Below are positions 41,637 through 64,000 of a stretch of 64,000 nt of DNA, in pieces. This stretch comes from Nemertoderma westbladi. Taxonomy: Eukaryota; Animalia; Xenacoelomorpha. The stretch is taken from contig JAUCBJ010002429.1 of assembly GCA_032718475.1 (NCBI GenBank), positions 1 through 64,000 on the forward strand. The letters are read 5' to 3'. The notes beneath the pieces are model-generated. The model did not search any database. It was given only the letters and a program-made list of their open reading frames with translations, and was not told the origin of the DNA. A program made the position numbers and the translations under genes. The first letter of the stretch is position 1. Each line of letters starts with the position of its first letter.

Positions 41637-43087
41637 TCACCAAAATTAAATAAGAAGACTTGTTTTAATGAGAAAATATTCAAATACAGCTATAAATAAA
41701 ATATTTATAAAATTGTGCTGGTTTAGGGATGCAAATCTCCCTGACTTGCCAAATTTTCAATTAAGATAACTTTTCCTGCAGCCTTTGTTCAACTGAAAAA
41801 AATGTCCAGTCTTAAAGCTCTGCCGCGCCACGACGTCAATGTGATGCAGGAGGGCAGAGGTTGGCTTTTTCATGGTAATGCTGGAAGCCATATAAACCCG
41901 GTTTGAAAGATCAGATACAGATGACAATGTTGGCTTTTTGTCAAACAGAAGTCATATAAACTGGTTTATTTATATTTTTTAAATTATTCTCTAGTGAATC
42001 AATCAGAATACTTATTGAGACATAGTTCTTTAATTTGAATATCATATATCTGATGTTGGATATTTCCCAATAGCCATCAAATGGGCAAGGAAATACTTTC
42101 TCTGGAAATACCGCAGTAATATCTTTTACTTCAGGCTATTTCCACCTTAAGTTAGAGGTTTCATGAAATCTCGAAAGATGGTCAAAATTGAAATTATCCT
42201 AAACTTCTTCATTTTTATCAATACAGTATCCTAGATACCATTTTCTCAAATCCTTCTCTTCCCAAAGACTTATATAGGCCTACATTTCATTTACAGTGAT
42301 GGTATTAGTACAGTCACTGCTGGAAGGGAGAACAAGTAGGATCATTGGTCAATATTCTTATCTGAAAGAAGCACACACAGGTTTTAAAATCTTTCTTTAT
42401 GGCTGATCTTTATTAACTTAAGTAGTTCTGGTCTTGGAAAATTTCTGCCCTACAGTATGTGTGTTTCTATAGTAATTGAGTTCAGTTTTTACAATTTTTT
42501 CTTCAATCAATGGATTTTTGACAATGATGCCAAGCAGCGCTTCAACATAAACTACTGGCTCTCCCCAAAATTTGTATAGTTCCAACAACTTTGTAGTACC
42601 GGTATTTATCTTAAGGGCGGTTGCTTTTTTAGTTTTTTTTAGTATCTGGGATACTGTATTGATAAAAATGAAGAAGGTCAGGATAGTTTCATTATGGACC
42701 ATCTTTCGAGAGTTCATGAAAACTCTAACTTAAGGTGGAAATATCCTGAAGTGAAAGATATTACCACAGTATTTCCTTACCCAATTGATAGCTATTGGGA
42801 AATATCCAACATCAGAAACATGATATTCAAATTAAAGAACTATGTCTCAATAAGTACTCTGATTGATTCACGAGAGAATAATTTAAATAATATAAATAAA
42901 CCAGTTTATATGACTTCTGTTTGACAAAAAGCCAACATTGTCATCTGATGAATTATTTCACTATAAGATAGCATTTGTAGTTTAACTTTAACGTAAAAAC
43001 TTTCGAAAATCCGACGTATTTTGATTGAGTTACAGTAATGTAATATGCCTATTCATATTTGTACACATAAAACCCTTAGGTACTCTC

Positions 43088-43170
43088 GTGGCGTAGTGGT
43101 CAGATGGTTAAGGCGTTGGTTACATTACATAGGTTACGAGTTCGAATCCCAGTCGGGAAATTTGTATTTT
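43088..43170 (+). promoter_or_regulatory. tRNA-like Pol III A/B-box cassette inside the LTR (second copy 59447-59529)
   Basis: A box TGGCGTAGTGG (43089-43099), D-arm-like GTCAGATGGTTAAGGCG, B box GAGTTCGAATCC (43138-43149), T-run at 43167-43170; anticodon and acceptor stems do not pair. Confidence 0.6.
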
Positions 43171-43199
43171 GGGGCCATTTATTTTCGTTTGGTGCTAAT

Positions 43200-43480
43200 T
43201 GGTAGGCCAATGAGAAGCGTACAACGTAGCGGATGATGAGCCAGGCCAATCATAGGGCATAAATTATCTTATTGCTCAAATGTGAGGCAGTGGAAAATTC
43301 TGTTAGGATTCCATGTCCCAGATTAGTGTAAGGGCCGGACTGCGTTGAACGATGAGCTGGGCCAATCATAGGGCACGAAGCACTTTATTGCTCAAATGTG
43401 AAGCTGTGGAAAATTCTGTTTAGTTTCCATGTGCGATATTTAGTATAAAAGGCCGGTTTGACTTCTTATCACTTCTTATC
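43200..43480 (+). promoter_or_regulatory. Putative LTR Pol II promoter: three GGCCAAT boxes, ~115-bp tandem duplication, TATAAAA and Inr-like TCACTT
   Basis: TATAAAA at 43444; ATCACTT with A at 43471 (27 nt downstream); duplicated block ~43235-43350 / ~43351-43456. Confidence 0.55.
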
Positions 43481-46169
43481 ACCTTATAACCCCTTATAAC
43501 GTTATTCAAAATTGTTATTAGTTTATTTTCGGTTTCTTGTTGAAACTTTATTTGATAAATCCTTTGTAAAACTGTAAATAGACTGCAAATTCCTGAACAT
43601 GTTTTCTTTTGGTCCAACTTTGGGACAGCCAAACATCAGGGAGATGGCAGCCTAGACCGTTAGGCCGTAAGCAATGCAGGGAAGAGATGTCCACAACACG
43701 CTAGCGCCCACATTGGGTCGACCGCGCACCCCCTTTGCCCCTTCGAAATACTCCACTTGCCATGCAGCGCCCGCTTTGTGAGAAGGTAAGACTTTGTTCG
43801 ACGCCCTTGCCCGCCGTAAGACCTATAGATCAGGGTAAGCGTGACGCCGTACTGGACGCCGCAAATTTAGGATCAAATAATTATATTCAGACAGAAACAC
43901 CCCCCCTTTGTCATGTCCTACGAACCCCTGGGTTAACCTGTACTTCCTACAGGTGCGAACTATTGCCATTCGTCAGTACGCGAGTACATATTAGGTACGG
44001 ACAGCATATGTTCCATAATTTAGTGATTCGTAGCACTGACTGTTTGGTACCGGTTCGCTTTGTAGAACGTACATTAGTACCCCCCCCCCCCCCTGTCTGG
44101 AGTTAGCTATTTGATCAGGCAAGGAGCATTTCTGCTACCGGCACACTGCTTGGCCTAGGGAGGTTTATTAATATCCTACCGCGCCTTGCCACGTACTGAT
44201 AGGTATTGCTGCTAACTACCGCAGCAACAAAGTTCTAGAATTAAATTAGTATACCAGATCAGCTAACGTACGGTAGCAATAAACCCCTATTCTTATCTTA
44301 CAACCAGAATCTGGTATTAGTGCCGATCACGGGTGTAGTTACTAACACCGTGGTTGCCCATTGGGTTGTGGATAGGAAGGAGAGAGCTTTGACGTCATTT
44401 GTGAGTATAAAGTTCTACAAAACGCGACTAGTTTATTTTAGTAGCTAGCGCACGGTATCATTTAGTCAGAAAATCACTAAAACCTAGTAAAGGAATTACA
44501 CGAAATTGTTTTATTTGTAACACACCCACACACACATGCCCTAAAACAAATTGCCCTTAAAGTTCTACTAGCTATAGCGCACTATACATTACTTTAGGTG
44601 GAAATTATCTGTATTTGTAAAATTAGGATCTGATTTAGTTGCGGCAAGAGAGAGTATTTCATTTTCGTTATTAAACTGTTGTTTTCTGTCCAGCAGTTAT
44701 TGTTACATTTAGGCCTGACCCTTTAGACTGATTTCGTACAGGGGGATCAGTTATCGTTACATTTAGGCACGACTTTAGGCTGATTTAGACAGGGGTAATC
44801 AGCATTGTTACACTAGGTCTGTTAACCACCTAGTTCGTATATAAACCATATAAATCACACCGCGGCAAGTTACTGTATTTATGACTGTCAGTGATAGTTA
44901 GGATTCGCTGCGCAGGGATTGTTTTCCCGTGAGTTTGGTCTGTTACTGTAACTGTACATCTGCCTCACCTGTTAGAGGACAGGTATCCTTCTGTCTAGTA
45001 CGTAGGCATTAGACCCGCTCACGTACATAAAATAGATACTAGGCTCTGTTCCTCGCCAGTAGTCGTTTGTGTATTGTATCTGTTTGTTTAGATATCCTGG
45101 ACTGGGATTTGTTGTCAGATACTGTACGAGCCCGTATACATTACTAGAGTCTCATAGTAAGATACATCGTTACTAGGATCTGGTAAGCGGTATACTACTG
45201 GACCCTTACAGTAGGAAGTATTTATATAAATTAGTATATAGTATTTCCGCCGTAGCATACAGTATAGTTTAGAACTGTTAGCTATTGAAAGTAGGAGATA
45301 TTTAAAATTTAAGGTTAGTAAATTTAGTAATTTAGAACGTCCCCTGCTTCAGTAGGCTTTTAGGGTAGCTAGTACTTTCGTATTTAATATTTGACTAGCT
45401 AACAGTTAGTTTGTAGCACTTTGTTTTACGCCGTGTGTGTGCGGTGTTACTTTTCGGTACTTGAAAAGGTTCATAGGGTTTAAAGACCAATTTGTATCGG
45501 TACCTAGGAAGATTTTTCGTAAGCGTAGAAGTAAAACTCTCACCTTCGACCTTTTCAGGACTCAAAGACTCATTTCTGGACCGCTTCGAGGATTAGACCG
45601 CTTTTCGCAAAGTTTGGGCGACAATAAATTCGTCCGCGCCGCCGAAAAACGGAAAGACCCACGTCCGGTTTGTATTTGGGAATTTGTACGACTGGAAGAT
45701 CAAAGGAACGTAAGTTTTACGACTCGCGTCGTTCAAACTTAAGAAAGCACAGTAGTACTCAAAATTTGTGGGTTTCACTGTCTATTAGTAGTGTTGTTGG
45801 TACGTATTTTCCCGTTAGACGTTGCTGTTTGGCCTATTGTTTGTACTTGTTGATCTATATTTTGTTAACGTATACCGTTATCTCATTTATTCGTACAAAT
45901 TTAGCCGGTAGGCTAGATTACTACTTATTTTATTATATACCTTGTTAGTTTTATTTGTACCGGTTAGGGTATATATATGATATATATATATATCAAGGTA
46001 AGTTTGACATTTGTACATTTCGACATTTTGACATTTCGACATTCTGACTTGTTGATTTATTTGTACCGGTTAGGGTATATATGTACTATATATACCAAGG
46101 TAAGTTTGACACTTCAACATTCAGACACTTTGACATTTTATTACCCGTACTTGACGTATATAATAAGAC

Positions 46170-49100
46170 ATGAGTGACACACCCCATTCGACGAGATACC
46201 CACCTACCGACTATGACTTGTGCGACCCGTACAGATCGACAGTAGACGAACCAAGAAGGAGAACCCGAGATTCCACCGATGTCACACCGCTTGCGTCGCC
46301 GGTACCCCGAACGGAAATACCGGAAGCCGCAACGCGTGGCGACGGCAGAATCGAAGATTTCCTTACCGTCCCGCAGACTAGATCACGGGAACCGGACATG
46401 GTAAGTTCGACTGGAAGCCAGGAGAACGTTATTAGAAGTATAGGAGGACACATGGCCCAGATTACTCGGAACCTCGGAGAAGGTTTTCGCGTTTTACGCG
46501 AGTTAACCGCCCCGATGTCGAGATACGAGTTCTACACCTTACAGGTAAGGATAGAAAGTAGGGTACATGCCTCCGTAGATAAACTTAAAGGTTTGCACGA
46601 ACTTGCAGAGTTGCGTGGCGACAACTTTACTCAGGTAAAGATAGTAGATAAATTAGTAAGTGCGAGAGAAAGCATTATCCAGTTTAAGTCAGTAATAAGA
46701 TTGGCTCAAAAGGAGCAGTTTGACCAACTGCTAGGTGAGTCAGTTTCGGACGCGTTGTTACAACCCGAAGAGGAAGAAGAACTCTACTGCCTGGACGGAA
46801 GGTTGGAAACGCTGACCAATTTTCTTCGTAGATGCGGCGTACCGATCGACGAACCGGAAGTCGAACCGCGAGGGACGACGGAAGTTCTCACTACGGAAGG
46901 CTCGCGAGCCTACCAACATCCACCACTGGATAGATCGTTCGTTAGCGTACGGAGCGACGTTGGCAACGTTGGCGACGTTAGTAGAACAGCGTCTGGAATT
47001 ACTCGACAACAACAGGAGGTTGCACGCCGACAACAAGTCGCTGAGGAAGAAGCGCAACACCAGATGGCACAGATCGCCATCGAAGGAGAGAAACAACATA
47101 GAGAGGACGAGGCAAGAATTGCGCAACTCAAGGCGCAAGCCGAATTTGAAGCTTCGGAAATGCGCAGACTAGAGGAAAACTTAGCGCAAGAAGCGGCCGC
47201 GGCAGCAGCAGCGGATGAGTTAGCATGACAGACGGCAGCCGACGAGTTAGCACGGAAGAAAGCAGCATCCGACGCTCGCGCTAAGTTGGAGGCGCGACAA
47301 ATAAACGCACGTTTAGCTATACAGGAAGCGGAGTTAGCGGCACAACAACAAGTAGCGGATCGACGCGAAAGGGAGATGCAACTACAGTTCGAATTGAATC
47401 GTAGATCGCGCGAGACAGCGAACGCGCAAGCGGACCTCGAACTCGACGCGAGAGATAGATCTATAAGATCGCGAACTGGACACGACTTGTCTGCCCTGGA
47501 TCGTATGGAAGCTCGATATCGCGGAATACAGAAGCGGATCGAGGAAGGAAGTGTGGGAGCGATAGATCGAGGAGAGGAGTTCGTCGAGGATTACTGTAAA
47601 CGTTTTCCCCAAGTTATTCCTATGCTCAAACCCACGACTCCGATAAAACCGGTCTTCATTACGAAACCTAAGGAAATAACGCCTGTGCGTTCGACGCAAA
47701 GCAACAGGTTTGTTGTGACAGAAATACCGCAACCTAGGGCGACTTCATCGCCAATTTTAGCAGGTAACGTAACTAGTCCACCTACAGTAAGTCGTAGTCT
47801 ACTTGTAGGAAGAGAGGAACCTGCGTTTATGACCATTAAACAGGTGAGTAAACCATTACAAGTTAAACCTGTGACGTGCTGTGCAAATCCAGTTATTTAC
47901 AGACCGACTACGAAACCCGACTATTTCACTCGACCGTTGACACAATGTTCGACGCAACCTACGACTTCATGGAAGGCTTGCGAGCCTACCGAACTACGGA
48001 GGAGGATGGATGTGGGTAGTACCCACGGGATCGGACAACGTATAGCGAAACCTACGACTTCGTGGAAGGCTTGCGAGCCTACCGAACAACGGAGAGCCGT
48101 AGATTCCAGACCACAACGGACGAGACCAAGAATAATACGCCGGACACGAACCCGCCAACCACCTTATCCGGACGACGGCGATTCATCCAGTGACTCGGAG
48201 TCGACGGAACGGGAAATATTCCGTACTGGAGCGGCGGAAGATTATAAACGAGAGGAACGATCGACGAACCCCTATATCGACAATCCTCCACGAGAAACAC
48301 CCCAACAGAAACCCACGTTGCAACCAGCGGAAGCGATTAGCACCAACAGACTCGCCGAAATAATGCGACCTGTAGCGGACCGACTAGCTCAGATAGAAGA
48401 GCGACTCGAAGCGCAACCGTCGGATCGATCACGAACCAGCGTGGAGTTGGAACAACCTAGACAACATCGGCCACCGAGGAGAGAACAGGAGACTAGACGG
48501 ACTCCGACACATCGAGAAGAAGATCCCGTTAATAATTCCTACCGACGAACAACGCGCGGAAGGGAATGACTGGACGACGCCGCCGAACAGGGACGCGGAC
48601 AGTTGGATTTAGTTAGCGAGATTGCGAAATTCGCGGCTAGACACGGATTACCGGCACAGCAACCGCCGAAGTTGTCTGGCAACGCGAAACACTGGCGCAC
48701 ACTGGTAGACTACGTAGAGTCCCAGATCGCTAAGTGTGCTTTCACCTCGACGGAGAAGTTTAATTACTTGCTCCAAGTCCTGTCTGGTGAGCCGAAACGA
48801 TTAGCGGAAACCTTTATTGGTGTTCCCGATGCCTTTGAGTTGGCATACGACCGTTTGTATTCAATTTACGGCGGTAATGTCGCCATGGCTAAATCCATCA
48901 TTGAAGACCTCTGCAGAGGAGGCAACATTTCGAGACCGATCGACCTTTTACGACTCGCGGACGAAATAAAGAACGCTATAGGGACTTTACGGTCCATTGG
49001 ACAACTCGAGTACGCTAACGCACCGACGGTTCTCATTCGAATAATCGGTCGACTTCACCATCGACTACGAAGAGAATGGCGACGCATCGAGTACCAGCGC

Positions 49101-49439
49101 GAAGAGGCCGGAGGGTTATTAAAACTCACCGATGTCTATCAACTTATTTCACGGGAGGCCATGATCGAGACTCGATCGAACTATACCGATCACCATATCG
49201 CGGCGGAAGGGATAGCTGTTTCTGCGCCGACTCGGACAAAACCGTTTCCGACGAACGCGAAAGCCGTTACTTACGCCACCCCTACTGAGACTTCTAAAGT
49301 TCTGACGCCTATCGGCACCACGCAGCCACGACAACAGTTGCCGGCGGACTTTGTGGGATGCTCATACTGCGAGCGGAACGGCAGAAACCATAGCGGACAT
49401 AAACTACGTGGATGTCGCGCTTATAGGTTGGTATACTAG
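46170..49439 (+). pseudogene. gag: BEL/Pao gag (long coiled-coil N-terminus, DUF1759-like core, one Cys/His knuckle) with in-frame TGA stops ending at 47228 and 48569
   Basis: Three consecutive same-frame ORFs; LSGNAKHW...EKFNYLLQVLSGEPK...AYDRLYSIYG core; CSYC...H...C. Confidence 0.85.
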
Positions 49440-52400
49440 AGCACCAATACGTTCACTAGAGGTAAGTGACCAGGAGGACGACGTTTTGAGTACGTGTAGT
49501 TTATTGACTAACACGATAGATAATTCTCCTTCACACTCCTGTGGTCCAATTGTACGGACGGCATTACGACAGACTTGCGTCACTAACGCAGACGCCACCG
49601 ATACTGACGTAACCGATCTGGACACGACCATACGGACCTCTGACTTACAACTACTTGCAGTAGACCAGGTTGTATTGACTACTGAAGACCAAAGGGTTGT
49701 TGCCGTGGATGACTCGATGAACGAGGATTTTGGAAGGCTTGCGAGCCTACCGAAAAATCTGAAGGTCATTGACCCCACCCACCAGGCTTCGACACCGGTC
49801 GTTGATCTTGGAAGGCTTGCGAGCCTACGGACAGGTCAAGAAGTTGTCAAACCGCCGCACGACGATTCGACGCCGACTAGTGACACCGGAAGGCTTGCGA
49901 GCCTACCAGACGCATTGACACTAGCCACTGCAGCGGACGAAGACGTGGACGAGGACCATGGCGCAGTGCAAGCAGCGCTTGACCGACTGCTGACTGAACG
50001 GACCATACAATGGTTGGAACAGGACTCAGCAGAACCCGGTAGTTACGAGACCGCTATGTCAGAACAGGAAAAACGGTCATTAAATATTATGAGAGATACC
50101 ATTCGCCAGACCGCGAATGGCCACTATGAGGTTGGTATGTTGTGGCGCGATGGACAACCTAAGCTCGTTAACAATTACCCGCTTGCTTTGAGGCGACTCA
50201 AATCAATAAGGCAGCGATTGTTGCGAGACGAGATGGCCCATATGCAATACAATGCACAACTTCAGACGTATCTCCAAAAGGGATACGCCATTAGGATGTT
50301 AAATCCCGAGGTAACCACAGACCAGACATATTACCTGCCACATCATTTTGTTTGACACCCGGACAAACCTGGCAAGGTGCGTGTAGTCAACGACTGCGCT
50401 GCGCTTTACCAAGGGATGTCTATGAACAGCGAACTGATGGACGGGCCGAATATGAATAATTACCTCATGGGAGTCCTAATGCGTTTTAGACAACGCAAAG
50501 TGGCTTTCACCTGTGACGTAGAGGCCATGTTTCACCAGGTTAAGGCTTTGGAGCGGGACAGGGACAGTTTGAGGTTTCTTTGGTATCCGGACGGAAACTT
50601 ACAACTTCCGCCAGAAACTTACCAAATGCAGGTAAGAGTATTTGGAGCCAGGGACAGCCCCAACTGCACCATGTACGCATTGAAGCAGACAGCATTGGAC
50701 AGACGAGACCAATTTGACCCAGAAGTAGTTCGGACCGTGGAACGAGACTTCTACGTGGATGACGGCCTCAAGAGTTGTGACACCTTGGAGCGCGCTACAA
50801 CCGTAGCACACCAACTCCAGGATTGTCTCGCTGAGGGCGGATTTCACCTGACGAAGTTCGCTTCCAATGAACCCGAACTGGTGAACTCATTTGACCCGAC
50901 GGATCGTAGCGGAGGTGACTTAGACTTAGACCTAGAGCCTCTGCCGACGACCAAAGTATTAGGACTTAGTTGGGACCCTAACACCGACAATTTTAGGGTA
51001 CGTGTAAGGTCCAACGACCAGACTAGACCTCTCACTAAGAGAACTTGCTTATCGACCATGAGTCGATTGTATGACCCATTGTGTTTCATTAGTCCAGTGA
51101 TCCTACATGCTAGGATCATACTCCGCAGCATTTGGCAAGCCGGACTGGAATGGGACGATCCCATCCCAGAAAAGTTAGCTGAGCGATGGAGGGACTGGGA
51201 AGCCCAACTGACGTTCCTACAAGATTATACCATACCAAGGGTATACTTTCCTTTGCAAACCACCTTTCCTGCCGATTTAGAGCTTCACAGCTTTAGTGAC
51301 GCTAGCAAGGACGGATTGGGGGTTACCTTAAACCTTAGACGACAAGTGACATCGGACAGCTACGATGTATCTCTCGTTACTTCAAGGGCTAGAACAATGC
51401 CATTGAAGTATATGACTGTACCTCGTGGGGAGCTGCAAGCCGGGACGATATCCACCGATATTGTCAGTCTAGTTCAACGCGAGCTGGAGGCTAACTTGAA
51501 GGTCACATATTGGACGGATGCGACGTTGGTACTTTGGTACATAAACAACGAAACATTTGAGTTCAAGACTTTCGTAGCCAACAGACGGGCTGAAATACTA
51601 GACCGGTCGCTCAAACAAGATTGGCGTCACTGTCCAGGGAAGCTGAACCCAGCTGACATCGCGTCACGGGGGATGCAACCGCTTGACTTTTGTAAACCGG
51701 ACAATAAATCCTTTTGGTTTAGAGGACCCGATTTCCTACAGCGACCATCAGACGAATGGCCACCGTTATTCGACGCGACAACCAACACCATACCAGAGGG
51801 CGCCGAGATAAAACTCGACAAGGTTGTCAAGTCTAAAGCGAAAGCCAACGCCAAGGTCAAGAGGAAAAAAGGACGGACGAAATCTGATGACCTGGACGCC
51901 AGACCTGACATTACGCCAGACGTCTCGCCAGACACTCGACCAGACGCTTGTACGAATCCTTCGCCGGATGTTCCGCGGGAGATTACACCAGACGTTTCGC
52001 CGGATTGTTCACCAGATTACTCGCCAGATTATTCACCAGAAGCGACACCAGATTGTTCTCCGGATTGTACGCCAGATTGTTTGATGGAACTCTCGACAGA
52101 ATGTCTACCGGACGTCTCACCAGACTTTCCACCAGACATCTCGACAGACTGTCCACCAGACTTTGAACCAGACTTTCTGACAGAAGTTACGCTAGACAGA
52201 CTTTGGGACCGACGACAGGACATTTCGCCGGATGTTCCGCGCTATGTCTCACCAGACGTCTCACCAGACTGTTCACCAGACGCTTCACCAGACTGTCTAC
52301 TAGACACTCCATTAGAAGACCCATTAGAGCGGACTTTTAGAAACTTACCAAATTTGACTTCTTTGGACGACAAAGGTGTGGCCACAGGGATTACACTCCG

Positions 52401-52650
52401 CTCGAAGAAGGTACTTGACTTACCTACAGGTAAAGTGGTGACTAAGGTTAGGAAGCTTACAGGCTCACAGGAACACACTGACACTGTAGAGTTGAAACCA
52501 TTACTGCCAGTCGACACATTAGGTGCGGACGGCAAAGGTAAGACCGTAGAGATTGACGTACTTGGGGACTTAGACAAACCTACCGGGAAGGCCCGTGGGC
52601 CTACCAAGTCCAGACAAGTATACACACTACGACTACACCTTACCCGATGA
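49420..52650 (+). pseudogene. pol: BEL/Pao pol: RT and RNase H, in-frame stop ending at 50355, protease core apparently deleted
   Basis: GHYEVGMLWR, YYLPHHFV*HPDKPGKVRVVNDCAA, DVEAMFHQV, FGARDSP, FYVDD, KVLGLSWD, LYDPL, LHSFSDAS, YWTDAT, FVANR, NPADIASRG. Confidence 0.93.
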
Positions 52651-54172
52651 CGTCACTAACACTTACGTTGACAGGATAGTGAACCTAACTAGATCATGGA
52701 CTGACGCGTGCCGCAAGTTAGCATGGCTCAAACGATTGAGACAATATGCCAGAGGCAAACGCGACTTTCCTAGAAGACTTACCTTAAAGGAAATTGGCCA
52801 CTGTGAAGTTGATATCATTAGACATTATCAATTGCGATATTTCGCACGAGAGTTCACAGCGATCAAACAAGGTAAACAGATTAAGTCTTCACCGATTTTG
52901 AGTTGGAGTCCGATTATTTACCGGGGCTTACTTTGTCACAAGTCCAGACTCCAAAACATCGACTTTGCACTTGACTTTAGGTATCCTATCATCATACCGC
53001 AACACCATGAGTTACAGCGCGCTATGATACTGGACGCACATGTACAACTCAAACACGTAGGTAGACACCACTGTCTATCACACTTACGTTCGAGGTTTGT
53101 ACTGATTAGACCTAGTAAGGCACTGAGTTCGGTAACACGGAACTGTATTATTTGTAAGAAGGTGCACGCGAGGATAGGACACCAAGAAATGAGTGAACTA
53201 CCACTAGCTAGATTACAGGCGTTTAGACCCCCTTTCACTGAGACAGGGATAGACTGTTTTGGACCCATAATCGCGAAACGCGGAAGGGTACAGGTAAAAC
53301 GTTGGGGATTGATCTTCACTTGCATGGCCAGCAGAGCTGTCCATATAGAGCGAGTGACAGACTTGACCACCAATGCCTTTATCCTAGCCTTACGGCAATT
53401 TATCGCTAGACGTGGATTGGTCAAATCCATATACTGCGACCAAGGGACAAACTTTGTGGGTGCACGGAACGAGATAACCAGAGCTTTGAGAAAATTGGAC
53501 CAAAACCAGATTTCCGAGGAACTACGTCCTCACCGTATTGTTTGGTTTTTCAATACTCCAGACAGTCCGTGGAGAGGCGGCGTTTGGGAAAGGTTGATTG
53601 GCTCAATAAAGACAGCTATGGCTAAAGTCGTACCGACGCAACACATCTTGACAGACGACCAACTAACGACGTTACTAATAGAAATTGAAGCAATCTTAAA
53701 TACTAGACCGATCGCTTTGATCCCAGACAATAACGACGTACAGTTTGCCTTGACACCAGCGCACCTGCTTATGCAGGCGCCGATGACATTGTTGCCCATT
53801 TCGGTACCCGTTGATGGTGACGGATACGGCAACAAGGCTTGGAAAATCACTCAATTGCTTGCAAATAAATTCTGGGAAATATGGCAGAAATATTATTTGC
53901 CCTCTATTTCGACCAGAACCTCTTGGTATCTAAATACCCGATGTTTAAGACGTGGTGACCATGTTTTATTAGCTGAAGCCAATCTGAAAAGACGGTTTTG
54001 GCTGACTGGAGTCATTTTGACCACGCACCCTACATCTGGTGTAGTGAGGACAGTTACTGTACGGACTATCGACGGACGTACTGTAGATAGGCCTGTACAA
54101 TGTCTCGTGCTCCTTGAGGAGACTAGAAACGAGACGGGAGACTACAAATCTCCACCCAATATTAGTAAATAG
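52595..54172 (+). CDS. BEL/Pao integrase (HHCC zinc finger, DDE core, C-terminal domain), +1 frameshifted relative to RT/RNase H
   Basis: H..LKH.G...CIIC; GIDCFGP; IYCDQGTNF; GGVWERLIG; IEAILNTRP; LTPAHLL; FWEIWQKYYL. Confidence 0.95.
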   Translation: MGLPSPDKYTHYDYTLPDDVTNTYVDRIVNLTRSWTDACRKLAWLKRLRQYARGKRDFPRRLTLKEIGHCEVDIIRHYQLRYFAREFTAIKQGKQIKSSPILSWSPIIYRGLLCHKSRLQNIDFALDFRYPIIIPQHHELQRAMILDAHVQLKHVGRHHCLSHLRSRFVLIRPSKALSSVTRNCIICKKVHARIGHQEMSELPLARLQAFRPPFTETGIDCFGPIIAKRGRVQVKRWGLIFTCMASRAVHIERVTDLTTNAFILALRQFIARRGLVKSIYCDQGTNFVGARNEITRALRKLDQNQISEELRPHRIVWFFNTPDSPWRGGVWERLIGSIKTAMAKVVPTQHILTDDQLTTLLIEIEAILNTRPIALIPDNNDVQFALTPAHLLMQAPMTLLPISVPVDGDGYGNKAWKITQLLANKFWEIWQKYYLPSISTRTSWYLNTRCLRRGDHVLLAEANLKRRFWLTGVILTTHPTSGVVRTVTVRTIDGRTVDRPVQCLVLLEETRNETGDYKSPPNISK

Positions 54173-54979
54173 ATGTGGGACCTTTGTTGGCCGCCACATA
54201 GACCTACTGTATTTTAGTTATTTGTATTTGTATTACTGTACGTGCATTTGTAATCCTCTTCACTGTAGATAGAGACAGCGGTGGAATTCCATTGTCTTTA
54301 TACGTGAACATGGAGGGTAGTACCCTTATGTATCACATAGGAGCGGGATTGTGTGTACAGTAGGAATGGAATTCCACTTGGAACCCACAAGTGAGACAAT
54401 TTTCAAAAATTATTAGACAAATCCATTTATTTGGATTTAAATTTAAGAAAACGATTCTCCAGTGAAAGCAAATTCTAGAATACAGCTAGATAAAATTAAA
54501 ATTGGGGAGGACAAGAGCGGATGGAAGGCTTGCGAGCCTACCGATAAATTTTTTTTGGAAAAAGAAAATCGGCCTTGTTCTACGTAGTCGTGTCTACTAT
54601 TATTTAGACCAATTAATTCTCGACTGCACTATTTTTCTTGGGAAACGTAGTTTGGGAAATTAAAAGGTGAGTATTTTAGACTCGCGGCTAGTTTACCCGG
54701 AATTCGTTTTTTATCGGCACATTTTTTGGATTAGGAGCCAGTGCGAAATCACGCGAACCCGAAGTCATTAGGCAAATGGGTTGGGGTTTAGAGCAGAGTT
54801 GAGCCAAAAGCCGACAAACTCTAAGTCACCTCACATCTAACCTCTATTTTGTGCTTCATCTAGTAGAAACGTAACGATATGTAACCGCATATATTCATAT
54901 ACGATGGCGGAGAAGATGTATAAAGAGTTACGTCAAGGGTTTACGCAAGAACAAGAGCACCAGGCGCCATTCAATCGTT

Positions 54980-57880
54980 ATGGTATCGATTAGTGTGTTT
55001 GGAGTGGAGAGTATGGCTAGGAGTACGGCCAAGCTCGCTAAATCCAAGGCGGACCCGAATGTTACGCGACAGCGGTTGGACGCATACAACAAAAGAACGG
55101 AGGAATTACGCGCGGAATACAATGCGTTATATCCCTACGATGCGTTATGCGACGCTAGCGACATTTGCGAGGATCCAGACACCGAAATACGCCGATTGTA
55201 TCATACGCTGCAATATTTGACGGTAAACGAACTCTTACCTGCAGCTAGAGACGAATTTGAAGGAATGCATCTTTATAGACGCGCTCGAGGAGCGGATCCA
55301 GAGACCAAGGACGCGTTTTCCGTATACAAACTGTTTTATAAATGTGGAGCGTGTATGCGCGAGCAAGACAACGCGATTCCTATGCGGTTGAACTCGGAGA
55401 ACCCCGAGCCGATATTAGCGCGATGTTCACACCACCAAAGTCTACGTTACCAAGAAGGCGGATACCCTTTGACAAATCCGTATCATTCATTTAAGATGAG
55501 TGGACCGAACGCGGGTGAGATCGTTATTTACGAACCTAAATTAGTCGAACCAGACGTCTACAGCATGGTAGTGGACGAGTCTAATAAGTCGACACAAGAG
55601 AAACGGGAAGCTTTGAGCCTCTACAGGGCGTACAAGGCGTACGAGAAAGGTGAGATCGAGGAGTTCGGCGGAAGGCTCGCGAGCCTACCATTCTATTGGA
55701 TATCCCACGATCAAACCGAACCCAAGGAGATGACACCCGAGCTCTTCGATAGTATCACCTTTGCTCAGCGTTTGTCGCAGAGACTACAGATACCTCATGT
55801 CGAGATGACGCGAGAACCTCAACCCCATTCTACTGGAGCGATAGTACCGGTTGCGAGACCAACTAGTTTTCCTATTAGTATACCGACCCGGAAGGAGACA
55901 ACTTACGAGATCCCTATAGTTGAACACCCGGAGATCATCTCGAACCTGGATTTCCTCCCATCGGTTACCTTCGGTGATGTGTTAGAATCAACCGAGTTGC
56001 GTAAAGTAATAGTTCAAAAAATCGTACGCAACGTGCCTCCACATATCACGGACTTTAAGGAAGTGGATCGCGCGGGGACGGATATCGCACCTTGTATCTT
56101 GCGAGGATATCTGACGAAAACGATTCGATTATGGATCGGAGTTGGGACGTTTGAGACCGACACCGATATCGCGACCAATTGGACCGGTAAACCTATTAGT
56201 TTCGATGACGAAAAGTCGATCGGGAGAATTTGGAAACCTACCGACGATTTACTCGACGATTGGGACGTGACTAGCCGATCTCTGAAAGAGAATGGATATA
56301 TGTTTTATGATAATGAAGGAGGAAGCCATCAGCAAAGCCTCACTTCAAAGACTATACAGATTAGAGCACCAGATGGCGTGTTACATGTCTTCAGCCGACA
56401 GAGGAGTGATAGGAAGATGCCTATGCCGGAAGGAACGACGCAAAGACACGCGATGATAAAACGGATAGTTAAATCCATGGACCTGGCTTGTAGCATAGAA
56501 GCTAGGATGTTGCCAAAGGCCGTGCGAGACGTTGTGTTGGATAAGAGCATCGTCAAGATCGGATCCGGTGTACGGGATGACCTCATTAGCGACTTTGCAG
56601 GGATGCCCACGGAAGAGGACCGATTGCCTACGCCATACGTGGATACTAGACCATTGTTGCTTTGGGCTATTGAGCAAGGATACTTTAGAGAGTATAACAC
56701 GCTAAAAACTGGAACGGGTTATATCTCATATCTGATGTTCAGTTGGGATTACAAGGAGAGTAAGAGGAACAAATACACGGACGTATACGGAGAGGGAGAT
56801 ACCCCCGGCGTAAACGAGTTTGATTCACAGTTGAAGTGGCGAGGTTGCGTGTATTGGGCGATTACTTCACCTCCGCGGATAATCTTACAATACTATTTAG
56901 CGATAGAATCTTCGGTTAACGTTTGTTTCATCGCGGACGTAGTATCCAGAACCTTAAAGCGACACCCGTTATGTCTTGGCGAAGGACATACCTTTTACGA
57001 TGGAGGAAGGACGCATACCGATGTATTCCGACGATTTCTCCAACCCTTTTATAACACCGATGCGCACTGCGAAGTTTTCACGCGAGCGGGACTTAGTGTT
57101 TTCAGGGACGTCTATCTCACTCACGCGGGAAGTCTAGTCGACAGACCGTCGATGTTAACGTTAGTACCCTATGACGGGGAACGCCACGCGGAATTCGAAC
57201 GCCCGGAAGGATCCTGGAAGGCTCGCGAGCCTACCGCCCATCATGACGATGTGGATCCGACCGAGTTGGCGCTAATAGACGAACCGTTACGGCAACTCAT
57301 AGAAATAGAGGAGAACCTTCCGAGGAAGATGCGAACTGAGATACGCGAGTTAGAGAAAAGCGATGCCATGGTTTGTGTACAACCTACGGAGACGAACATA
57401 CCGACTGACCCGGATGATGAGAATTATCACGTGGACGGTAGCGCTCGCCCCATCGGAGATCTCATCTATGAGCGAGTTTGGTATCCTGCCAACACTATTT
57501 GTGGCAGATGTGGAGCAACTGGCCATAACGCAAAGAAGTGCGGAGCGAAGCACATATCTCTACCGGATTTAGTATGCAACTGGTGCGGGGATCAACGTTC
57601 GCACACTTTCTACACTTGCTGGCGTTTCGTGGCGCAGTGTACTTATTGTAATATTAAGGGCCATAGGGCATCCGAATGTCAACTTAGAGACGTCCCCTAT
57701 GAGCACATGTCAGTTAAAATCGTTCGACAATTATTCGACCATTGGGAGGATCTAGCAGATGAGCATGTATCGACGCAGCGACGCCGCTTCCCTATGAGAG
57801 CACATTTGGGATTTTGGGCCGTAAACCCTCTCATAATGTCAAAGGAAGGATATGTATCGGCTATGCCTCAGTACAAATGA
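54980..57880 (+). CDS. Extra retrotransposon ORF3: DEDD-type 3'-5' exonuclease-like domain plus three CCHC zinc knuckles, 966 aa
   Basis: TIQIRAPDG.LHVF, LPKAVRDVVLDKSIVKIGSGVRDD, YVDTRP, LQYYLAIES resemble WRN/EXD2-type exonuclease motifs; knuckles at 57500-57541, 57575-57619, 57638-57679. Confidence 0.7.
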   Translation: MVSISVFGVESMARSTAKLAKSKADPNVTRQRLDAYNKRTEELRAEYNALYPYDALCDASDICEDPDTEIRRLYHTLQYLTVNELLPAARDEFEGMHLYRRARGADPETKDAFSVYKLFYKCGACMREQDNAIPMRLNSENPEPILARCSHHQSLRYQEGGYPLTNPYHSFKMSGPNAGEIVIYEPKLVEPDVYSMVVDESNKSTQEKREALSLYRAYKAYEKGEIEEFGGRLASLPFYWISHDQTEPKEMTPELFDSITFAQRLSQRLQIPHVEMTREPQPHSTGAIVPVARPTSFPISIPTRKETTYEIPIVEHPEIISNLDFLPSVTFGDVLESTELRKVIVQKIVRNVPPHITDFKEVDRAGTDIAPCILRGYLTKTIRLWIGVGTFETDTDIATNWTGKPISFDDEKSIGRIWKPTDDLLDDWDVTSRSLKENGYMFYDNEGGSHQQSLTSKTIQIRAPDGVLHVFSRQRSDRKMPMPEGTTQRHAMIKRIVKSMDLACSIEARMLPKAVRDVVLDKSIVKIGSGVRDDLISDFAGMPTEEDRLPTPYVDTRPLLLWAIEQGYFREYNTLKTGTGYISYLMFSWDYKESKRNKYTDVYGEGDTPGVNEFDSQLKWRGCVYWAITSPPRIILQYYLAIESSVNVCFIADVVSRTLKRHPLCLGEGHTFYDGGRTHTDVFRRFLQPFYNTDAHCEVFTRAGLSVFRDVYLTHAGSLVDRPSMLTLVPYDGERHAEFERPEGSWKAREPTAHHDDVDPTELALIDEPLRQLIEIEENLPRKMRTEIRELEKSDAMVCVQPTETNIPTDPDDENYHVDGSARPIGDLIYERVWYPANTICGRCGATGHNAKKCGAKHISLPDLVCNWCGDQRSHTFYTCWRFVAQCTYCNIKGHRASECQLRDVPYEHMSVKIVRQLFDHWEDLADEHVSTQRRRFPMRAHLGFWAVNPLIMSKEGYVSAMPQYK

Positions 57881-58655
57881 ATTGTTGGAGTTATTGGATA
57901 TATTGCCGTTGGACAGTGGATTCAAAGTTGTGCGGGACTATTTCTTACAAGTGCACCCCGACAACAAGAATACTTGGAACTTTCAAACTGTGGTGAACAA
58001 GATTACCGCCGGAGAATTCGATAAACTGCGAGTTGAACAGCGGAATCGAGGAGCCTGGCATTCGATAGCTTGGGCATACCGGAGCGCATTTTATCACAAA
58101 CGCGTAACCTCGTGCATTCTGGACGAGACCGACGTTTTGCGTGAGACTGGCTTCAAGGCCACGCCGTTAGCGGAGAAGACGCGTCACCCACAGGATGATC
58201 AGCAATTTCGTATACTCAAAGCCCAGAAGGCCGGACAAGAGATTAAGAAGATAGTGAATGTCGCCGAGAGGACGACATCGAAGTCGCAAATCCGGATGAC
58301 TCGGGGCACGGTTTCCCTTGCTAGAGAACCACGCGGAGGGACAGGATACGCTTTGACTGAACCCATTAGGATTCAAACGACGTCAGAGAGCGAGGTGTCA
58401 ACGGACGGAACGGTCCTACCTTTTCGACTTCCTCCTAGCATTGTAGAAACTCGATCCGATGTTAAGCCAACAGTTGGAATCGGACGAGGATTTAGAGGAT
58501 TAAGCGCACGACGGATGTGCGAAACTCCCGTCGTCCCCTTTCCTAGCGTTTTGGAACCACCGACGACTCGACGCCGAAGTCCGAGCCCAGTTCGACCTCG
58601 ACCACCCCCCAATCGCACTAGAGGACGTGGACGAGCCCGTTCAGCGAAGGAATAG
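57852..58655 (+). CDS. ORF4, 267 aa, overlaps the end of ORF3 in the +1 frame (possibly its frameshifted C-terminus); basic Arg/Pro-rich tail
   Basis: Open frame overlapping ORF3 by 29 nt; ends RRRSPSPVRPRPPPNRTRGRGRARSAKE; no recognised domain. Confidence 0.5.
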   Translation: MYRLCLSTNELLELLDILPLDSGFKVVRDYFLQVHPDNKNTWNFQTVVNKITAGEFDKLRVEQRNRGAWHSIAWAYRSAFYHKRVTSCILDETDVLRETGFKATPLAEKTRHPQDDQQFRILKAQKAGQEIKKIVNVAERTTSKSQIRMTRGTVSLAREPRGGTGYALTEPIRIQTTSESEVSTDGTVLPFRLPPSIVETRSDVKPTVGIGRGFRGLSARRMCETPVVPFPSVLEPPTTRRRSPSPVRPRPPPNRTRGRGRARSAKE

Positions 58656-58689
58656 AAAGCGAGTGGAAGGAAGGCTTGCGAGCCTACCG

Positions 58690-58790
58690 ATTTGGATATT
58701 ATATTTGGATATTATATTTGGATATTTTATTTGGATATTATATTTGGATATTTTATTTGAATATTTATATTGGACATTATGTTTGAATGT
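58690..58790 (+). repeat. Short tandem TTTGGATATTAT(A) repeat bracketed by two copies of the 20-nt hairpin
   Basis: About 7 units of 12-13 bp between the hairpins at 58669 and 58819. Confidence 0.85.
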
Positions 58791-59304
58791 TGGGTTTGGA
58801 AGGAGCGAGATATGGAAAGGAAGGCTTGCGAGCCTACCGTTAGCAATTGGTGCTCAGGAGAAGATATCCAGACCAGCAGGACGAACTATTAGATCGTCAG
58901 GAGGACATTATTGAAAGTTATTAGCGCATTATGTTTATATTATATTTGGACTGATTTAATTTGGTGAAGGTTTATTATGTATATTTACAATATATAAAGA
59001 TTTATCGAAAGAGTTTGATTTATTTGTTTGATTTGTTTGATTTATTTGTTCTGATTTGTTTAATTTGCTTACCTTGATAACCGAAAGCCTTTTTTGTATT
59101 TTAGGCACTAAAGTTAATTCGTAAATTTGTATTTGTATGTACGATCGATTGTATTTACGCCGTATCTGCAATATTAAGTATGCAATAATTAGATAGTGAT
59201 TATATTTTATATTTTAGGCCCTACCAGTAAATTTAGAAATAGTTTGTAAATATTTTATATTTCGATTGGTGAAAACAGTCTTACTTACTGTTTTCATGGA
59301 GCGG

Positions 59305-61569
59305 TGATGAATTATTTCACTATAAGATAGCATTTGTAGTTTAACTTTAACGTAAAAACTTTCGAAAATCCGACGTATTTTGATTGAGTTACAGTAATAT
59401 AATATGCCTATTCATATTTGTACACATAAAACCCTTAGGTACTCTCGTGGCGTAGTGGTCAGATGGTTAAGGCGTTGGTTACATTACATAGGTTACGAGT
59501 TCGAATCCCAGTTGGGAAATTTGTATTTTGGGGCCATTTATTTTCGTTTGGTGCTAATTGGTAGGCCAATGAGAAGCGTACAACGTAGCGGATGATGAGC
59601 CAGGCCAATCATAGGGCATAAATTATCTTATTGCTCAAATGTGAGGCAGTGGAAAATTCTGTTAGGATTCCATGTCCCAGATTAGTGTAAGGGCCAGACT
59701 GCGTTGAACGATGAGCTGGGCCAATCATAGGGCACGAAGCACTTTATTGCTCAAATGTGAAGCTGTGGAAAATTCTGTTTAGTTTCCATGTGCGATATTT
59801 AGTATAAAAGGCCGGTTTGACTTCTTATCACTTCTTATCACCTTATAACCCCTTATAACGTTATTCAAAATTGTTATTAGTTTATTTTCGGTTTCTTGTT
59901 GAAACTTTATTTGATAAATCCTTTGTAAAACTGTAAATATACTGCAAATTCCTGAACATGTTTTCTTTTGGTCCAACTTTGGGACAGCCAAACATCAGGG
60001 AGATGGCAGCCTAGACCGTTAGGCCGTAAGCAACGCAGGGAAGAGATGTCCACAACACGCTAGCGCCCACATTGGATGGACCGCGCACCCCCTTTGCCCC
60101 TTCGAAATACTCCACTTGCCATGCAGCGCCCGCTTTGTGAGAAGGTAAGACTTTGTTCGACGCCCTTGCCCGCCGTAAGACCTATAGATCAGGGTAAGCG
60201 TGACGCCGTACTGGACGCCGCAAATTTAGGATCAAATAATTATATTCAGACAGAAACACCCCCCCTTTGTCATGTCCTACGAACCCCTGGGTTAACCTGT
60301 ACTTCCTACAGGTGCGAACTATTGCCATTCGTCAGTACGCGAGTACATATTAGGTACGGACAGCATATGTTCCATAATTTAGTGATTCGTAGCACTGACT
60401 GTTTGGTACCGGTTCGCTTTGTAGAACGTACATTAGTACCCCCCCCCCCCCCTGTCTGGAGTTAGCTATTTGATCAGGCAAGGAGCATTTCTGCTACCGG
60501 CACACTGCTTGGCCTAGGGAGGTTTATTAATATCCTACCGCGCCTTGCCACGTACTGATAGGTATTGCTGCTAACTACCGCAGCAACAAAGTTCTAGAAT
60601 TAAATTAGTATACCAGATCAGCTAACGTACGGTAGCAATTAACCCCTATTCTTATCTTACAACCAGAATCTGGTATTAGTGCCGATCACGGGTGTAGTTA
60701 CTAACACCGTGGTTGCCCATTGGGTTGTGGATAGGAAGGAGAGAGCTTTGACGTCATTTGTGAGTATAAAGTTCTACAAAACACGACTAGTTTATTTTAG
60801 TAGCTAGCGCACGGTATCATTTAGTCAGAAAATCACTAAAACCTAGTAAAGGAATTACACGAAATTGTTTTATTTGTAACACACCCACACACACACGCCC
60901 TAAAACATATTGCCCTTAAAGTTCTACTAGCTATAGCGCACTATACATTACTTTAGGTGGAAATTATCTGTATTTGTAAAATTAGGATCTGATTTAGTTG
61001 CGGCAAGAGAGAGTATTTCATTTTCGTTATTAAACTGTTGTTTTCTGTCCAGCAGTTATTGTTACATTTAGGCCTGACCCTTTAGACTGATTTCGTACAG
61101 GGGGATCAGTTATCGTTACATTTAGGCACGACTTTAGGCTGATTTAGACAGGGGTAATCAGCATTGTTACACTAGGTCTGTTAACCACCTAGTTCGTATA
61201 TAAACCATATAAATCACACCGCGGCAAGTTACTGTATTTAGGACTGTCAGTGATAGTTAGGATTCGCTGCGCGGGGATTGTTTTCCCATGAGTTTGGTCT
61301 GTTACTGTAACTGTACATCTGCCTCACCGGTTAGAGGACAGGTATCCTTCTGTCTAGTACGTAGGCATTAGACCCGCTCACGTACATAAAATAGATACTA
61401 GGCTCTGTTCCTCGCCAGTAGTCGTTTGTGTATTGTATCTGTTTGTTTAGATATCCTGGACTGGGATTTGTTGTCAGATACTGTACGAGCCCGTATACAT
61501 TACTAGAGTCTCATAGTAAGATACATCGTTACTAGGATCTGGTAAGCGGTATACTACTGGACCCTTACA
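59305..61569 (+). repeat. 3' LTR, 2265 bp
   Basis: Direct repeat of 42946-45210, preceded by a short purine-rich GGAGCGG. Confidence 0.97.
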
Positions 61570-61934
61570 TCATCTGTATCTGATCTTTCAAACCGGGTTT
61601 ATATGGCTTCCAGCATTACCATCAAAAAGCCAACCTCTGCCCTCCTGCATCACGTTGACGTCGTGGTGTGACAGAGCTTTAAGACTGGACATTGAACAAA
61701 GGCTTGTAGGAAAAGTGTATCTTAATTGAAAATTTGGCAAGTCAGTGAGATCTGCATCCCATAAACCGAGTTACTAGCTAAGAACTAGCTAGATTCTGTA
61801 CTGCTGAACTGCACTACCGACTGCACTATCCAAATGCTGATACTGATAATTCTACTGCCTACTGGTACTGCTGTACTGTGTTCTGGCTGAACCCCGAAGC
61901 CTGAACGCTAACGCCCCTGCACTCATAGCTAGCT

Positions 61935-64000
61935 ATGGGCCCTACAGTTGATAGTTATATTGAGAATGGGGTACTCTGTTACTCTTTTCTGCGTTTGCAG
62001 CGAGGGACTCCATACAATGAATTGGTCGAAACACTTATATGTTGGCCGGGGTTTTCTAATGCAGACTATGAAGAAGCCAGATCGGTTCTGATCGAGGTTC
62101 TGGGATCCGACCGCGAAGTAAAAAAGTGGTTTGGTCAGAAACACACAGGTGATTTAAAGCGCCGTCGATAAGTCATCGACATTCTGGGTATTCTTGAAAC
62201 GCCGGATTTCTGTGGCCTAGATCCAATGCCAAAATTCGTTGTGGAGGACTTTACCCGACTCCCTCCAGTGACCACCGCAGGTTCGATTCTAACAACCCTG
62301 TCAGCGGATGTAAACTCCCTAAAGGAGCGCCTGGCGGTTCTCAAATCGCGACCGCCTCCTCTGCCTTCACGTGGGGCTGCTCCTGTTCCATCCCTGGTAT
62401 GAATTACGCGGTGCCGGTATATGTACTGGTAAACAGGCCGAACCCGAGTAACCAGTCGGTTCCAGTTCAGCTTGTCGACCTCAGTAGGGAGGATGCTGCT
62501 CACAACAAGGTAGCCAGCTGTGTGGCTAATCCACAGCTTGCGCATTCAGCTCAGGAATCAGACCACGACTCCGTCACTTTGGGCATCAGTTGTGGGTGCG
62601 GCTTCGGCGCAACACCAGACGCTGCAAGGTGCCAGCCTCGTCGATGGGATGACAACAATTGGGAATCGAGGCCGTCCAGTAAAGGCTGTCAATAAATTGC
62701 CCAATAGTAGCACCGGTAGTACAAGACAACCACGGCAGCCGCAAGTCGTTGGGACTGGCAACGGATTGGCCCAACACGACGGAGCGAGTTCGATCTGCAA
62801 GTTGTACATATCCCATATCGACATGGAGGAGACAGCGGATAGGTTGGTTGCCTATATAAAGGGGACCTTCAAATACCAGGTCAAATGTGAAGAAGTTAAT
62901 AATAAGAATACTATCTACAAATCATTTGTTATCACCTGCAAAGGCGCAGAAGCTGATGCAATTAAAGCAGAAGGCGCAGCCGCCTACTGGCCGCCACGTG
63001 TTCAAGTTCGTGACTGGTTCGAGCGGAGGGGATACTCGGGTCTGGGCATGGTGACACAGGCGCCGCTCGGACCTCCACAGCCACAGGGATCTCTACGAGG
63101 ATCGACGGAAAGTGAAACACAAAGCAATAATGATGGCGACAACAAAACATCTGAAACTGTCGTCGTATAATGCAAACTCAATACGAACGGCAAAGAGTCA
63201 ATACGTGATGAATAAACTGTTTGAAGGTTTGGATATAATCTTTGTCCAGGAGCATCTTCTTCCCAAACAGGATATCCCCTTCTTAGATTTTCTTTCTAAG
63301 GACTTTGGTGTACGCGGAACCTCGCCGGTGGATCTCTCTAATGGTCCACTCCTTGGTAGACCCTATGGAGGACTTGCTGTGTTCTGGAAGAATGAACTGG
63401 TGAAATCGATCGAAGTAATCGACTCATCAGATCCTCGGTACCTCGCCATTAAGATATCCGATGAATTCGGAGATGATATAGTGCTAATTAATGTATACCT
63501 CCCTTATGAATGCCAAGGGAACTATGACGAGTACATCGAGTTTCTGGGTAAACTCCAAGCTCTTATCGACACACTTCCTTTTAGTAAAATTTTTATAAGC
63601 GTTTAAGCGTTTATAGGCGACCTTAATGCCGACCCGTCAAGGGCATTTTATACTTAATTAATGGATTGGTTCATTGAGAATGGATTTGAGGTTCTGGATA
63701 TATCATCATTGCCCTCCAACATGTTCACGTACGTAAACCCGCTGTACAAGTGCACTTCCTGGTTGGACCACTGCATTGCATCCCTGTTGCTGAAGCCATT
63801 AATTGGCGACATAACTGTTAGCTACGACGCGTCTTTTTCAGACCATATGCCAATTTCATTGGAACTGGATATTAAGTGCGACACTTCTACAGGTCCAGAA
63901 TGTGGGACCCACACAAATCCAACACATAAACCTATCTGGGAAAAGGCGTCCAGCGCTGACTTGGCGAACTACAACTGGGTTGCTGCTGAGAAAATCGCGG
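61935..64000 (+). mobile_element. 5' part of a two-ORF LINE (ORF1 with RRM-like domain; ORF2 AP endonuclease), mutated, runs off the window
   Basis: ORF1 motifs IENGVLCY..., MPKFVVEDFTRLPPV, LYISHI...YKSFVI...YWPPRVQVRDWF; ORF2 SYNANSIR, FVQEHLL, GRPYGG, INVYLPY, GDLNAD, WLDH, SDH; small TAAGCGTT duplication near 63600 breaks the frame. Confidence 0.88.

Follow-up and report, generated by a model that had tools for sequence, protein, structure and literature searches.

A third gene with a probable DEDDy exonuclease-like domain and three zinc knuckles in an atypical BEL/Pao retrotransposon of Nemertoderma westbladi

What use does a long terminal repeat (LTR) retrotransposon have for a large third gene that occupies the envelope (env) position and does not encode an envelope protein? 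The question is raised by a stretch of 64,000 nucleotides from Nemertoderma westbladi (contig JAUCBJ010002429.1, positions 1 to 64,000; hereafter the window), where an LTR retrotransposon of 18,624 bp at 42946-61569 carries an open reading frame of 966 codons (ORF3, 54980..57880) between its integrase and its 3' LTR. Our analysis indicates that ORF3 is part of a longer gene under purifying selection, and that its product probably contains a far-diverged exonuclease-like domain of the DEDDy type in addition to three zinc knuckles; the same element carries a 12-copy hairpin that is a candidate target of the protein. All features of the element given here lie on the + strand.

ORF3 consists of an N-terminal part without an assigned domain, the exonuclease-like domain (aa 405-665, 56192..56974), an acidic linker, and a triple CCHC knuckle (aa 841-900, 57500..57679) whose units start at aa 841, 866 and 887. 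The position of the frame and the spacings of the three knuckles had been described in a first-pass annotation made from the sequence alone, and both are confirmed; the frame of ORF4 (57837..58655), which continues ORF3 C-terminally in other copies and whose end is a tail rich in Arg and Pro (17% R, 14% P), lies in the same gap. Three knuckles appear in 0 of 5000 shuffled versions of ORF3, and one knuckle in 3 of 5000. The best 19-residue Kyte-Doolittle means, 1.48 for ORF3 and 0.84 for ORF4, agree with the earlier statement that there is no signal peptide or transmembrane segment; with no hydrophobic segment and no match to an env family, identity as an envelope glycoprotein is ruled out.

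The case for the exonuclease-like domain is one of remote homology. Two sets of domains went into the profiles, 36 of bacterial WRN/EXD2-like type and 14 like RNase D/NrnC, with E. coli RNase D and one domain from Mollivirus added. In hmmsearch the WRN-like profile matches aa 508-535 with E 5e-5 (one comparison), making ORF3 the best frame of the window (next frame 0.02), whereas the RNase D-like profile barely matches ORF3 (E 0.023). An hhalign comparison gives a probability of 64% over 84 columns with a score of 36.3; the shuffle maximum is 20.4, and 0 of 60 shuffles reach ORF3. Pairwise BLAST of ORF3 gives E 0.011 with a Bacteroides WRN-like protein and E 33 with the Mollivirus exonuclease.

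The individual motifs were located with an ungapped block profile (WRN/RNase D) scanned over ORF3 positions (n=952). The ExoII-like block LPKAVRDVVLDKSIVKIGSGVRDD, which holds D534 (56579), ranks first and is reached by 0 of 300 shuffles, and the block PYVDTRPL also ranks first, so that LPKAVRDVVLDKSIVKIGSGVRDD and YVDT, both proposed in the first-pass annotation, are borne out. Its choice of GTFETDTD as ExoI is rejected: three registers of that segment rank 105, 790 and 833 of 952, while rank 1 falls on SRSLKENGYMFYDNE (YMFYDNE), where D444 (56309) and E446 (56315) stand and which is matched in 13 of 300 shuffles and, in a larger set, in 25 of 1500; MAFFT also sets D444 and E446 on the invariant ExoI columns. 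The ExoI, ExoII and YVDT blocks occur in the expected order, and 9 of 1500 shuffles do as well as ExoI plus YVDT when the place of ExoII is held constant. In a 43-row MAFFT alignment D444, E446, K526, D534 and K595 all fall on invariant columns. YLAIE (Y639/E643, 56894-56908), put forward earlier as ExoIII, ranks only 24th of 952 and is left unaligned by MAFFT, and we list it as a candidate. A signal of another kind comes from the ESM Atlas, where clusters of PF01612 come first at 0.92 and make up 23 of 30 matches for aa 360-720 and 29 of 30 named matches for aa 405-665; we count these as one source of evidence.

Several results weigh against the assignment. Pfam and NCBIfam give no match for the domain, and PF01612 is absent up to E 10 for the whole ORF and three sub-stretches; by Pfam score the domain is not a member of PF01612, of which it is likely a remote homologue. 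The N- and C-terminal halves of the domain, which hold ExoI and ExoIII, do no better alone than shuffles in hhalign, and 228 of 1500 shuffles do as well as the best ExoIII block. The profile family was picked after the motif had been seen, which somewhat inflates the figures obtained with it. In the Atlas, the rank-1 entries share 160 and 166 features, fewer than the 170 that true members of the family typically show, and a value of 0.9 is reached by 4-10% of shuffled proteins. An unguided AlphaFold model has a predicted local distance difference test (pLDDT) score of 33 and finds no Foldseek match; a model built with the 43-row alignment as its guide reaches pLDDT 59 (core 82-89) and matches EXD2, RICE, RNase D and Nibbler (E 6e-5 to 6e-4, Z up to 9.5, root-mean-square deviation 4-5) as well as exonuclease domains of polymerases, but these matches are circular and speak for compatibility only. 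In the guided model the helix with YLAIE, which the input left unaligned, has pLDDT 78 as against 37-42 for the aligned ExoIII alternative.

On balance we consider it quite probable, judging from sequence comparison, that the protein has a DEDDy fold in which D444, E446 and D534 stand in catalytic register, with E643 as a candidate for the fourth acid. The first-pass proposal of a WRN/EXD2/Mut-7-type nuclease or pseudo-nuclease that is not an env protein keeps its remote homology, on which profiles, blocks and the Atlas agree; its catalytic register did not stand, and the unguided model gave no fold match.

Copies of the element elsewhere indicate that the gene is maintained. Of 576 single-letter differences, 40 entered the variation listing, and 19 in ORF3 and 8 in ORF4 were scored; rows beside two breaks of the gene (see below) and rows in non-coding DNA were left out of the synonymous count. 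Against an expectation of 22-31%, 14 of the 19 scored differences in ORF3 (P 2e-6 to 1e-4) and 6 of the 8 in the ORF4 frame (P 0.004 to 0.014) are synonymous; ORF3 is under purifying selection. Contigs less than 90% alike over the region are present in all three runs of one organism (648 of 5906, 30 of 179 and 543 of 2895), and a second organism has 11 short records on it. Pieces spanning ORF3 differ at roughly 13-20% of letters, and therefore diverged sister copies carry the third gene; no contig joins ORF3 to pol, so linkage to pol is assumed. A neutral one-off capture or passenger absent from sister elements, the contrary case raised in the first-pass annotation, is thus rejected both by purifying selection and by the presence of the gene in diverged sister copies.

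Homologues of ORF3 were found by none of the database searches. Word searches gave none among 3,897 candidates (with aa 330-900) and none among 2,288 candidates from shorter proteins, phmmer gave none among 1.84 billion representatives, and there was no match to PDB sequences. A tblastn search of phages with ORF3 returned one match only (E 4), 29 pattern matches in metagenome contigs yielded 0 confirmed, and a reverse transcriptase (RT) query found no relatives in viral contigs.

The copy in the window is itself damaged. Where ORF3 meets ORF4, the contigs of three studies show a difference that changes the frame (depth 4395 of 4395, 224 of 322 and 5028 of 5061); because this difference joins both frames, it is the window copy that is broken at the ORF3/ORF4 junction, and the fusion of ORF3 and ORF4 in other copies, a check suggested in the first-pass annotation, is found as one frame running across it. 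At 54984-54990 the summed depth drops from tens of thousands to about 950 in the set labelled X1 and 110 in X4, and the contigs that cover these positions differ from the window. A 29-codon frame with its ATG at 54904 (54904..54993) ends where the window departs from the other copies; it may be part of the third gene and is a candidate for its true 5' end, at which the window copy is probably broken as well. The 966 residues are therefore the middle of a longer broken gene, and the full protein is roughly 1,200 aa. The earlier contrast between an intact ORF3 and a decayed gag-pol fails on account of these breaks; even with them set aside, finding no break in 2.9 kb when there are five in 8 kb is unremarkable (p 0.33), and preferential retention of ORF3 in the window copy is rejected on this figure.

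Two consensus splice donors lie upstream of gag, at 45995 and 46097 (45995..46105), and a candidate acceptor with branch point, pyrimidine tract and AG lies before ORF3 at 54837..54866; the acceptor is the single + strand match to a pattern that is at chance level in the window. Putative use of these donors with the acceptor would be consistent with env-like expression of the third gene from a spliced RNA.

The element contains a second conspicuous feature, a 20-nt hairpin, GGAAGGCTYGCGAGCCTACC, in 12 copies between 46895 and 58838 (starts 46895, 47971, 48064, 49732, 49810, 49888, 52586, 54523, 55670, 57216, 58669 and 58819), against 0.00 expected. All copies are on the sense strand, none lies in the LTRs or elsewhere in the window, and the family is the sole dispersed over-represented 12-mer family; five copies fall into two local tandem groups, leaving about nine independent sites. 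The hairpin has a 5-bp stem, a tetraloop, an A-A mismatch and 2 more pairs, and this identical hairpin is the minimum-energy structure in 12 of 12 copies, with most single z-scores weak. The copies occupy all three reading frames as well as non-coding DNA, and the copy at 52586 has both sides of one stem pair changed; because of these two observations the hairpin is best read as a nucleic-acid signal, with selection acting on the nucleic acid and overriding codon choice. A protein motif is rejected by the occurrence in three frames. The constant orientation and the A-A mismatch suggest RNA as the acting form. A scan of viral contigs gave 0 matches, and one of metagenome contigs gave 2 single matches without similarity to the element, which we take as chance. 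Among the element's features, this array may be the most unusual.

A further oddity concerns the start of reverse transcription. The primer-binding position after the 5' LTR (45211..45220) reads GTAGGAAG and does not start with TGG, so there is no canonical site for a tRNA 3' end. A perfect 10-nt complement of these bases lies within the LTR at 43941..43950, with the best TATA box about 500 nt upstream of it, and is a candidate self-primer; weaker 9-nt complements (7 plus two G-U pairs) lie at 43461 and 43471, just past TATAAAA at 43444. The decamer of 43941 is also present outside the element, in unrelated duplicated DNA at 13664 and 31659. [quoted passage not shown]

How might these features be connected? 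As our leading, though tentative, explanation, we predict that the product of this selected, non-env gene binds and 3'-trims the element's own RNA, likely at the 12-copy hairpin. Expression would be env-like, by way of a spliced RNA. The knuckles and the Arg-rich tail would grip RNA and, in the way that trypanosome RNase D uses its zinc finger, hand it on to the exonuclease-fold domain, which would bind or trim the element RNA. The hairpins would act as an address label that offers the protein many docking sites, and docking could serve ribonucleoprotein assembly, export or end processing, in the manner of CERV of Cer1 or of Egalitarian with stem-loops. The steps beyond the anatomy are modelled on trypanosome RNase D, Egalitarian and CERV. 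Several points count against this explanation. What ties the protein to the hairpins is residence in one element only; Gag, the obvious alternative, or a host protein could be the hairpin binder; just 4 of the 12 hairpins would remain in a spliced RNA; and internally deleted derivatives from other samples, with contig joints 55461-58525 and 55776-58945 that skip most of ORF3, mean that the third gene is not needed in cis.

That copies lose the gene would fit a protein acting in trans, for instance an active 3'-5' exoribonuclease that attacks host small RNAs (piRNA/siRNA or their precursors) and so suppresses silencing, the hairpins then being for Gag or some other use. We hold this to be rather unlikely. 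Three acidic residues in register would make catalysis possible, the ExoII signature is closer to the WRN/EXD2-like rows than to the RNase D-like ones (E 5e-5 and 0.023), and Nibbler/Mut-7 and EXD1, which have the same fold, work in small-RNA pathways (PMC5408684, in part); yet the fourth acidic residue is uncertain, the substrate is conjectural, and that paper saw no clear link of the DEDDy ORF3 of rotifers to copy number or silencing. No result of our analysis favours anti-silencing over other roles. A role inside the particle during reverse transcription, in which the protein makes or trims a non-tRNA primer, polishes cDNA ends or proofreads, seems to us unlikely. The canonical tRNA primer site is absent where the profile of the virus-taxonomy committee ICTV expects an 18-nt tRNA-Arg/Gly site (PMC8742986), the perfect 10-nt LTR complement is Tf1-like (PMC7175516, in part), DNA is a possible substrate of WRN/EXD2-type domains, and 3'-end processing has been proposed for the DEDDy domains of Dada transposons (PMC3706591, in part). 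Against this, the Tf1 primer is freed by RNase H and not by an exonuclease (PMC7175516); the complement lies well past the TATA box and its decamer recurs outside the element; and for the product of an ORF of its own no way into the particle is apparent.

The motif likeness could also be due to chance or to a decayed domain, with ORF3 being a nucleic-acid-binding accessory of another fold or a captured passenger. A single 28-residue block is significant on its own, and database searches (1.84 billion representatives and two word searches) gave zero matches, both of which suit such a reading; the ordered ExoI-ExoII-YVDT blocks and the independent language-model signal of the ESM Atlas speak against it, and purifying selection across ORF3 excludes a neutral passenger, so that we judge it improbable. 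A bolder extension of the RNA-binding explanation, which we regard as a long shot, is that a BEL/Pao lineage swapped env and the tRNA primer for an RNA-handling kit of its own, made up of a self-primed genome, a hairpin tag every ~1 kb, and a hairpin-reading protein with exonuclease fold and triple knuckles that sorts, protects or processes the RNA. If true, the kit would be a cognate pair like Rev/RRE or Egalitarian, undescribed for LTR retrotransposons in the literature searched; and if protein and hairpin are cognate, they would form a compact sequence-specific RNA tag-and-reader system.

The remainder of the element is that of a young BEL/Pao-type insertion. The 5' LTR (42946..45210) measures 2,265 bp, has TG...CA ends and follows the 5-bp target duplication TCATC; the 3' LTR (59305..61569) is preceded by a short purine run and followed by TCATC. 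The pair differs at 15 sites (99.34% identity, K 0.0066), as befits a young insertion. The gag region (46167..49439) contains DUF1759 and in-frame stops at 47226-8 and 48567-9, and pol (49306..54172) comprises RT, a Peptidase_A17/RNase H region and an integrase (52574-54172) with H2C2 and DUF5641, interrupted by a stop at 50353-5 and by frame changes, one near 49.3-49.4 kb and another near 52.6 kb, i.e. three in-frame stops and two frame changes for gag-pol as a whole. The Pfam domains (DUF1759 1e-9, RVT_1 0.019, Peptidase_A17 3e-38, Integrase_H2C2 6e-5, DUF5641 8e-18) run in the gag-pol order of gag, RT, RNase H and integrase, and because of this set and order the element, though atypical, is assigned to the BEL/Pao type; Peptidase_A17 is the 'Pao retrotransposon peptidase', and DUF1759 and DUF5641 are presumably typical of BEL/Pao. 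No D[ST]G[AS] protease motif is present in three frames of 49150-50400; that the stretch from the first gag knuckle to RT (49300-50355) has no such aspartic protease motif may reflect a deletion in the window copy or be typical of the family. Repeats with a 12-bp period at 51912-52304, which separate the RNase H region from the integrase, encode Pro/Asp-rich tetrapeptides. Each LTR contains RNA polymerase III A- and B-box-like motifs (43089-43148 and 59448-59507) resembling those of tRNAs or short interspersed elements; ARAGORN and Rfam gave zero matches within the element.

The insertion site is one arm of an inverted-repeat sequence (41720-42947 and 61570-61767) that looks like a miniature inverted-repeat transposable element or a foldback. 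Elsewhere in the window there are a large inverted duplication (~1700-18400 / ~28100-37400), its arms 93-99% alike in many segments and with several tandem arrays, and three sets of non-LTR retrotransposon-like ORFs with endonuclease/RT features at 20817-23429, 38339-41636 (- strand) and 62514-64000. Between the arms of the duplication lies an intronless ORF (24513-25118), perhaps a retrocopy, which we take from its look to be a ubiquitin-conjugating E2.

Set beside known systems, the element resembles Belpaoviridae/BEL-Pao elements (PMC8742986; PMC3118150, in part) in the set and order of its gag-pol domains, its TG...CA LTRs and its optional third gene. It departs from them in size, since 18.6 kb is about twice the profile's range and its LTRs measure 2.27 kb (the ICTV profile, PMC8742986, gives 4.2-10 kb, LTRs of 0.2-1.2 kb and the 18-nt tRNA primer site), in lacking that primer site, and in a third gene that is not env-like. 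With the WRN/EXD2/Mut-7 (Nibbler)-type exonucleases (PF01612), ORF3 appears to share ExoI D-x-E and ExoII K-x-G-x5-D in the same order; it differs in falling below Pfam detection, in having about 30 more residues between ExoI and ExoII, and in a displaced ExoIII, with Glu replacing Asp if YLAIE is the motif. A nematode Cer element is also reported to carry an exonuclease domain.

A parallel in layout is Trypanosoma brucei RNase D (TbRND, PDB 7C42), where a C-terminal zinc finger boosts RNA binding and cleavage (PMC7797062, in part). As ORF3 probably does, it joins a DEDD exonuclease to a C-terminal zinc-finger region; it is a cellular guide-RNA enzyme, whereas the ORF3 knuckles lie 175 residues past the domain in a transposon protein, and the likeness is of layout, not sequence. 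Two further comparisons are functional analogies only. The exonuclease-homology domain of Drosophila Egalitarian touches RNA stem-loops without its catalytic residues (PMC13186709, in part), and Egalitarian, which is encoded by the host and has LOTUS-like domains, binds longer stem-loops; CERV, an LTR-element accessory protein required for export of Cer1 genomic RNA (PMC10309623, in part), has a fold unrelated to ORF3.

The nearest precedent is found in bdelloid rotifers, where the LTR elements Juno and Vesta, and also the Athena/Terminon retroelements, carry a DEDDy-exonuclease ORF3 in the env position (Rodriguez, Kenefick, Arkhipova 2017, PMC5408684, in part); the same source notes a DEED variant and proposes a role in RNA 3'-end processing or silencing. 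The DEDDy ORF has since been cited as a known accessory domain of retroelements (PMC6338049 and PMC6431247, both in part), and Dada DNA transposons also encode a DEDDy domain (PMC3706591, in part). Compared by description, the rotifer ORF3 and that of the window are alike as extra DEDDy-like ORFs between pol and the 3' LTR without a transmembrane segment. Juno and Vesta, however, carry a dUTPase and LTRs of 159-551 bp, whereas the window element is BEL/Pao with 2,265-bp LTRs, and its domain is far more diverged and sits in a protein of roughly 1,200 aa with a triple CCHC knuckle under purifying selection. We found no published DEDDy ORF in BEL/Pao in the literature searched, including the available parts of PMC3118150, PMC9094657 and PMC11662393, Repbase Reports being outside the search; a precedent may exist there or in older literature.

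The arrangement is thus known already from rotifer LTR elements; with regard to its carrier, the present case stands apart from those of rotifers. New in the window element are the exonuclease-like domain fused to triple knuckles, the 12-copy hairpin, and the lack of a tRNA primer site together with the 10-nt LTR self-complement. DEDDy ORF3s have been without an assigned function since 2017. If a second LTR superfamily has captured such a gene independently and keeps it under purifying selection, retroelements would seem to have profited from the arrangement more than once, and the window element adds what the rotifer cases lacked, i.e. a concrete candidate RNA target in the hairpin, together with an odd primer site, which makes the function testable.

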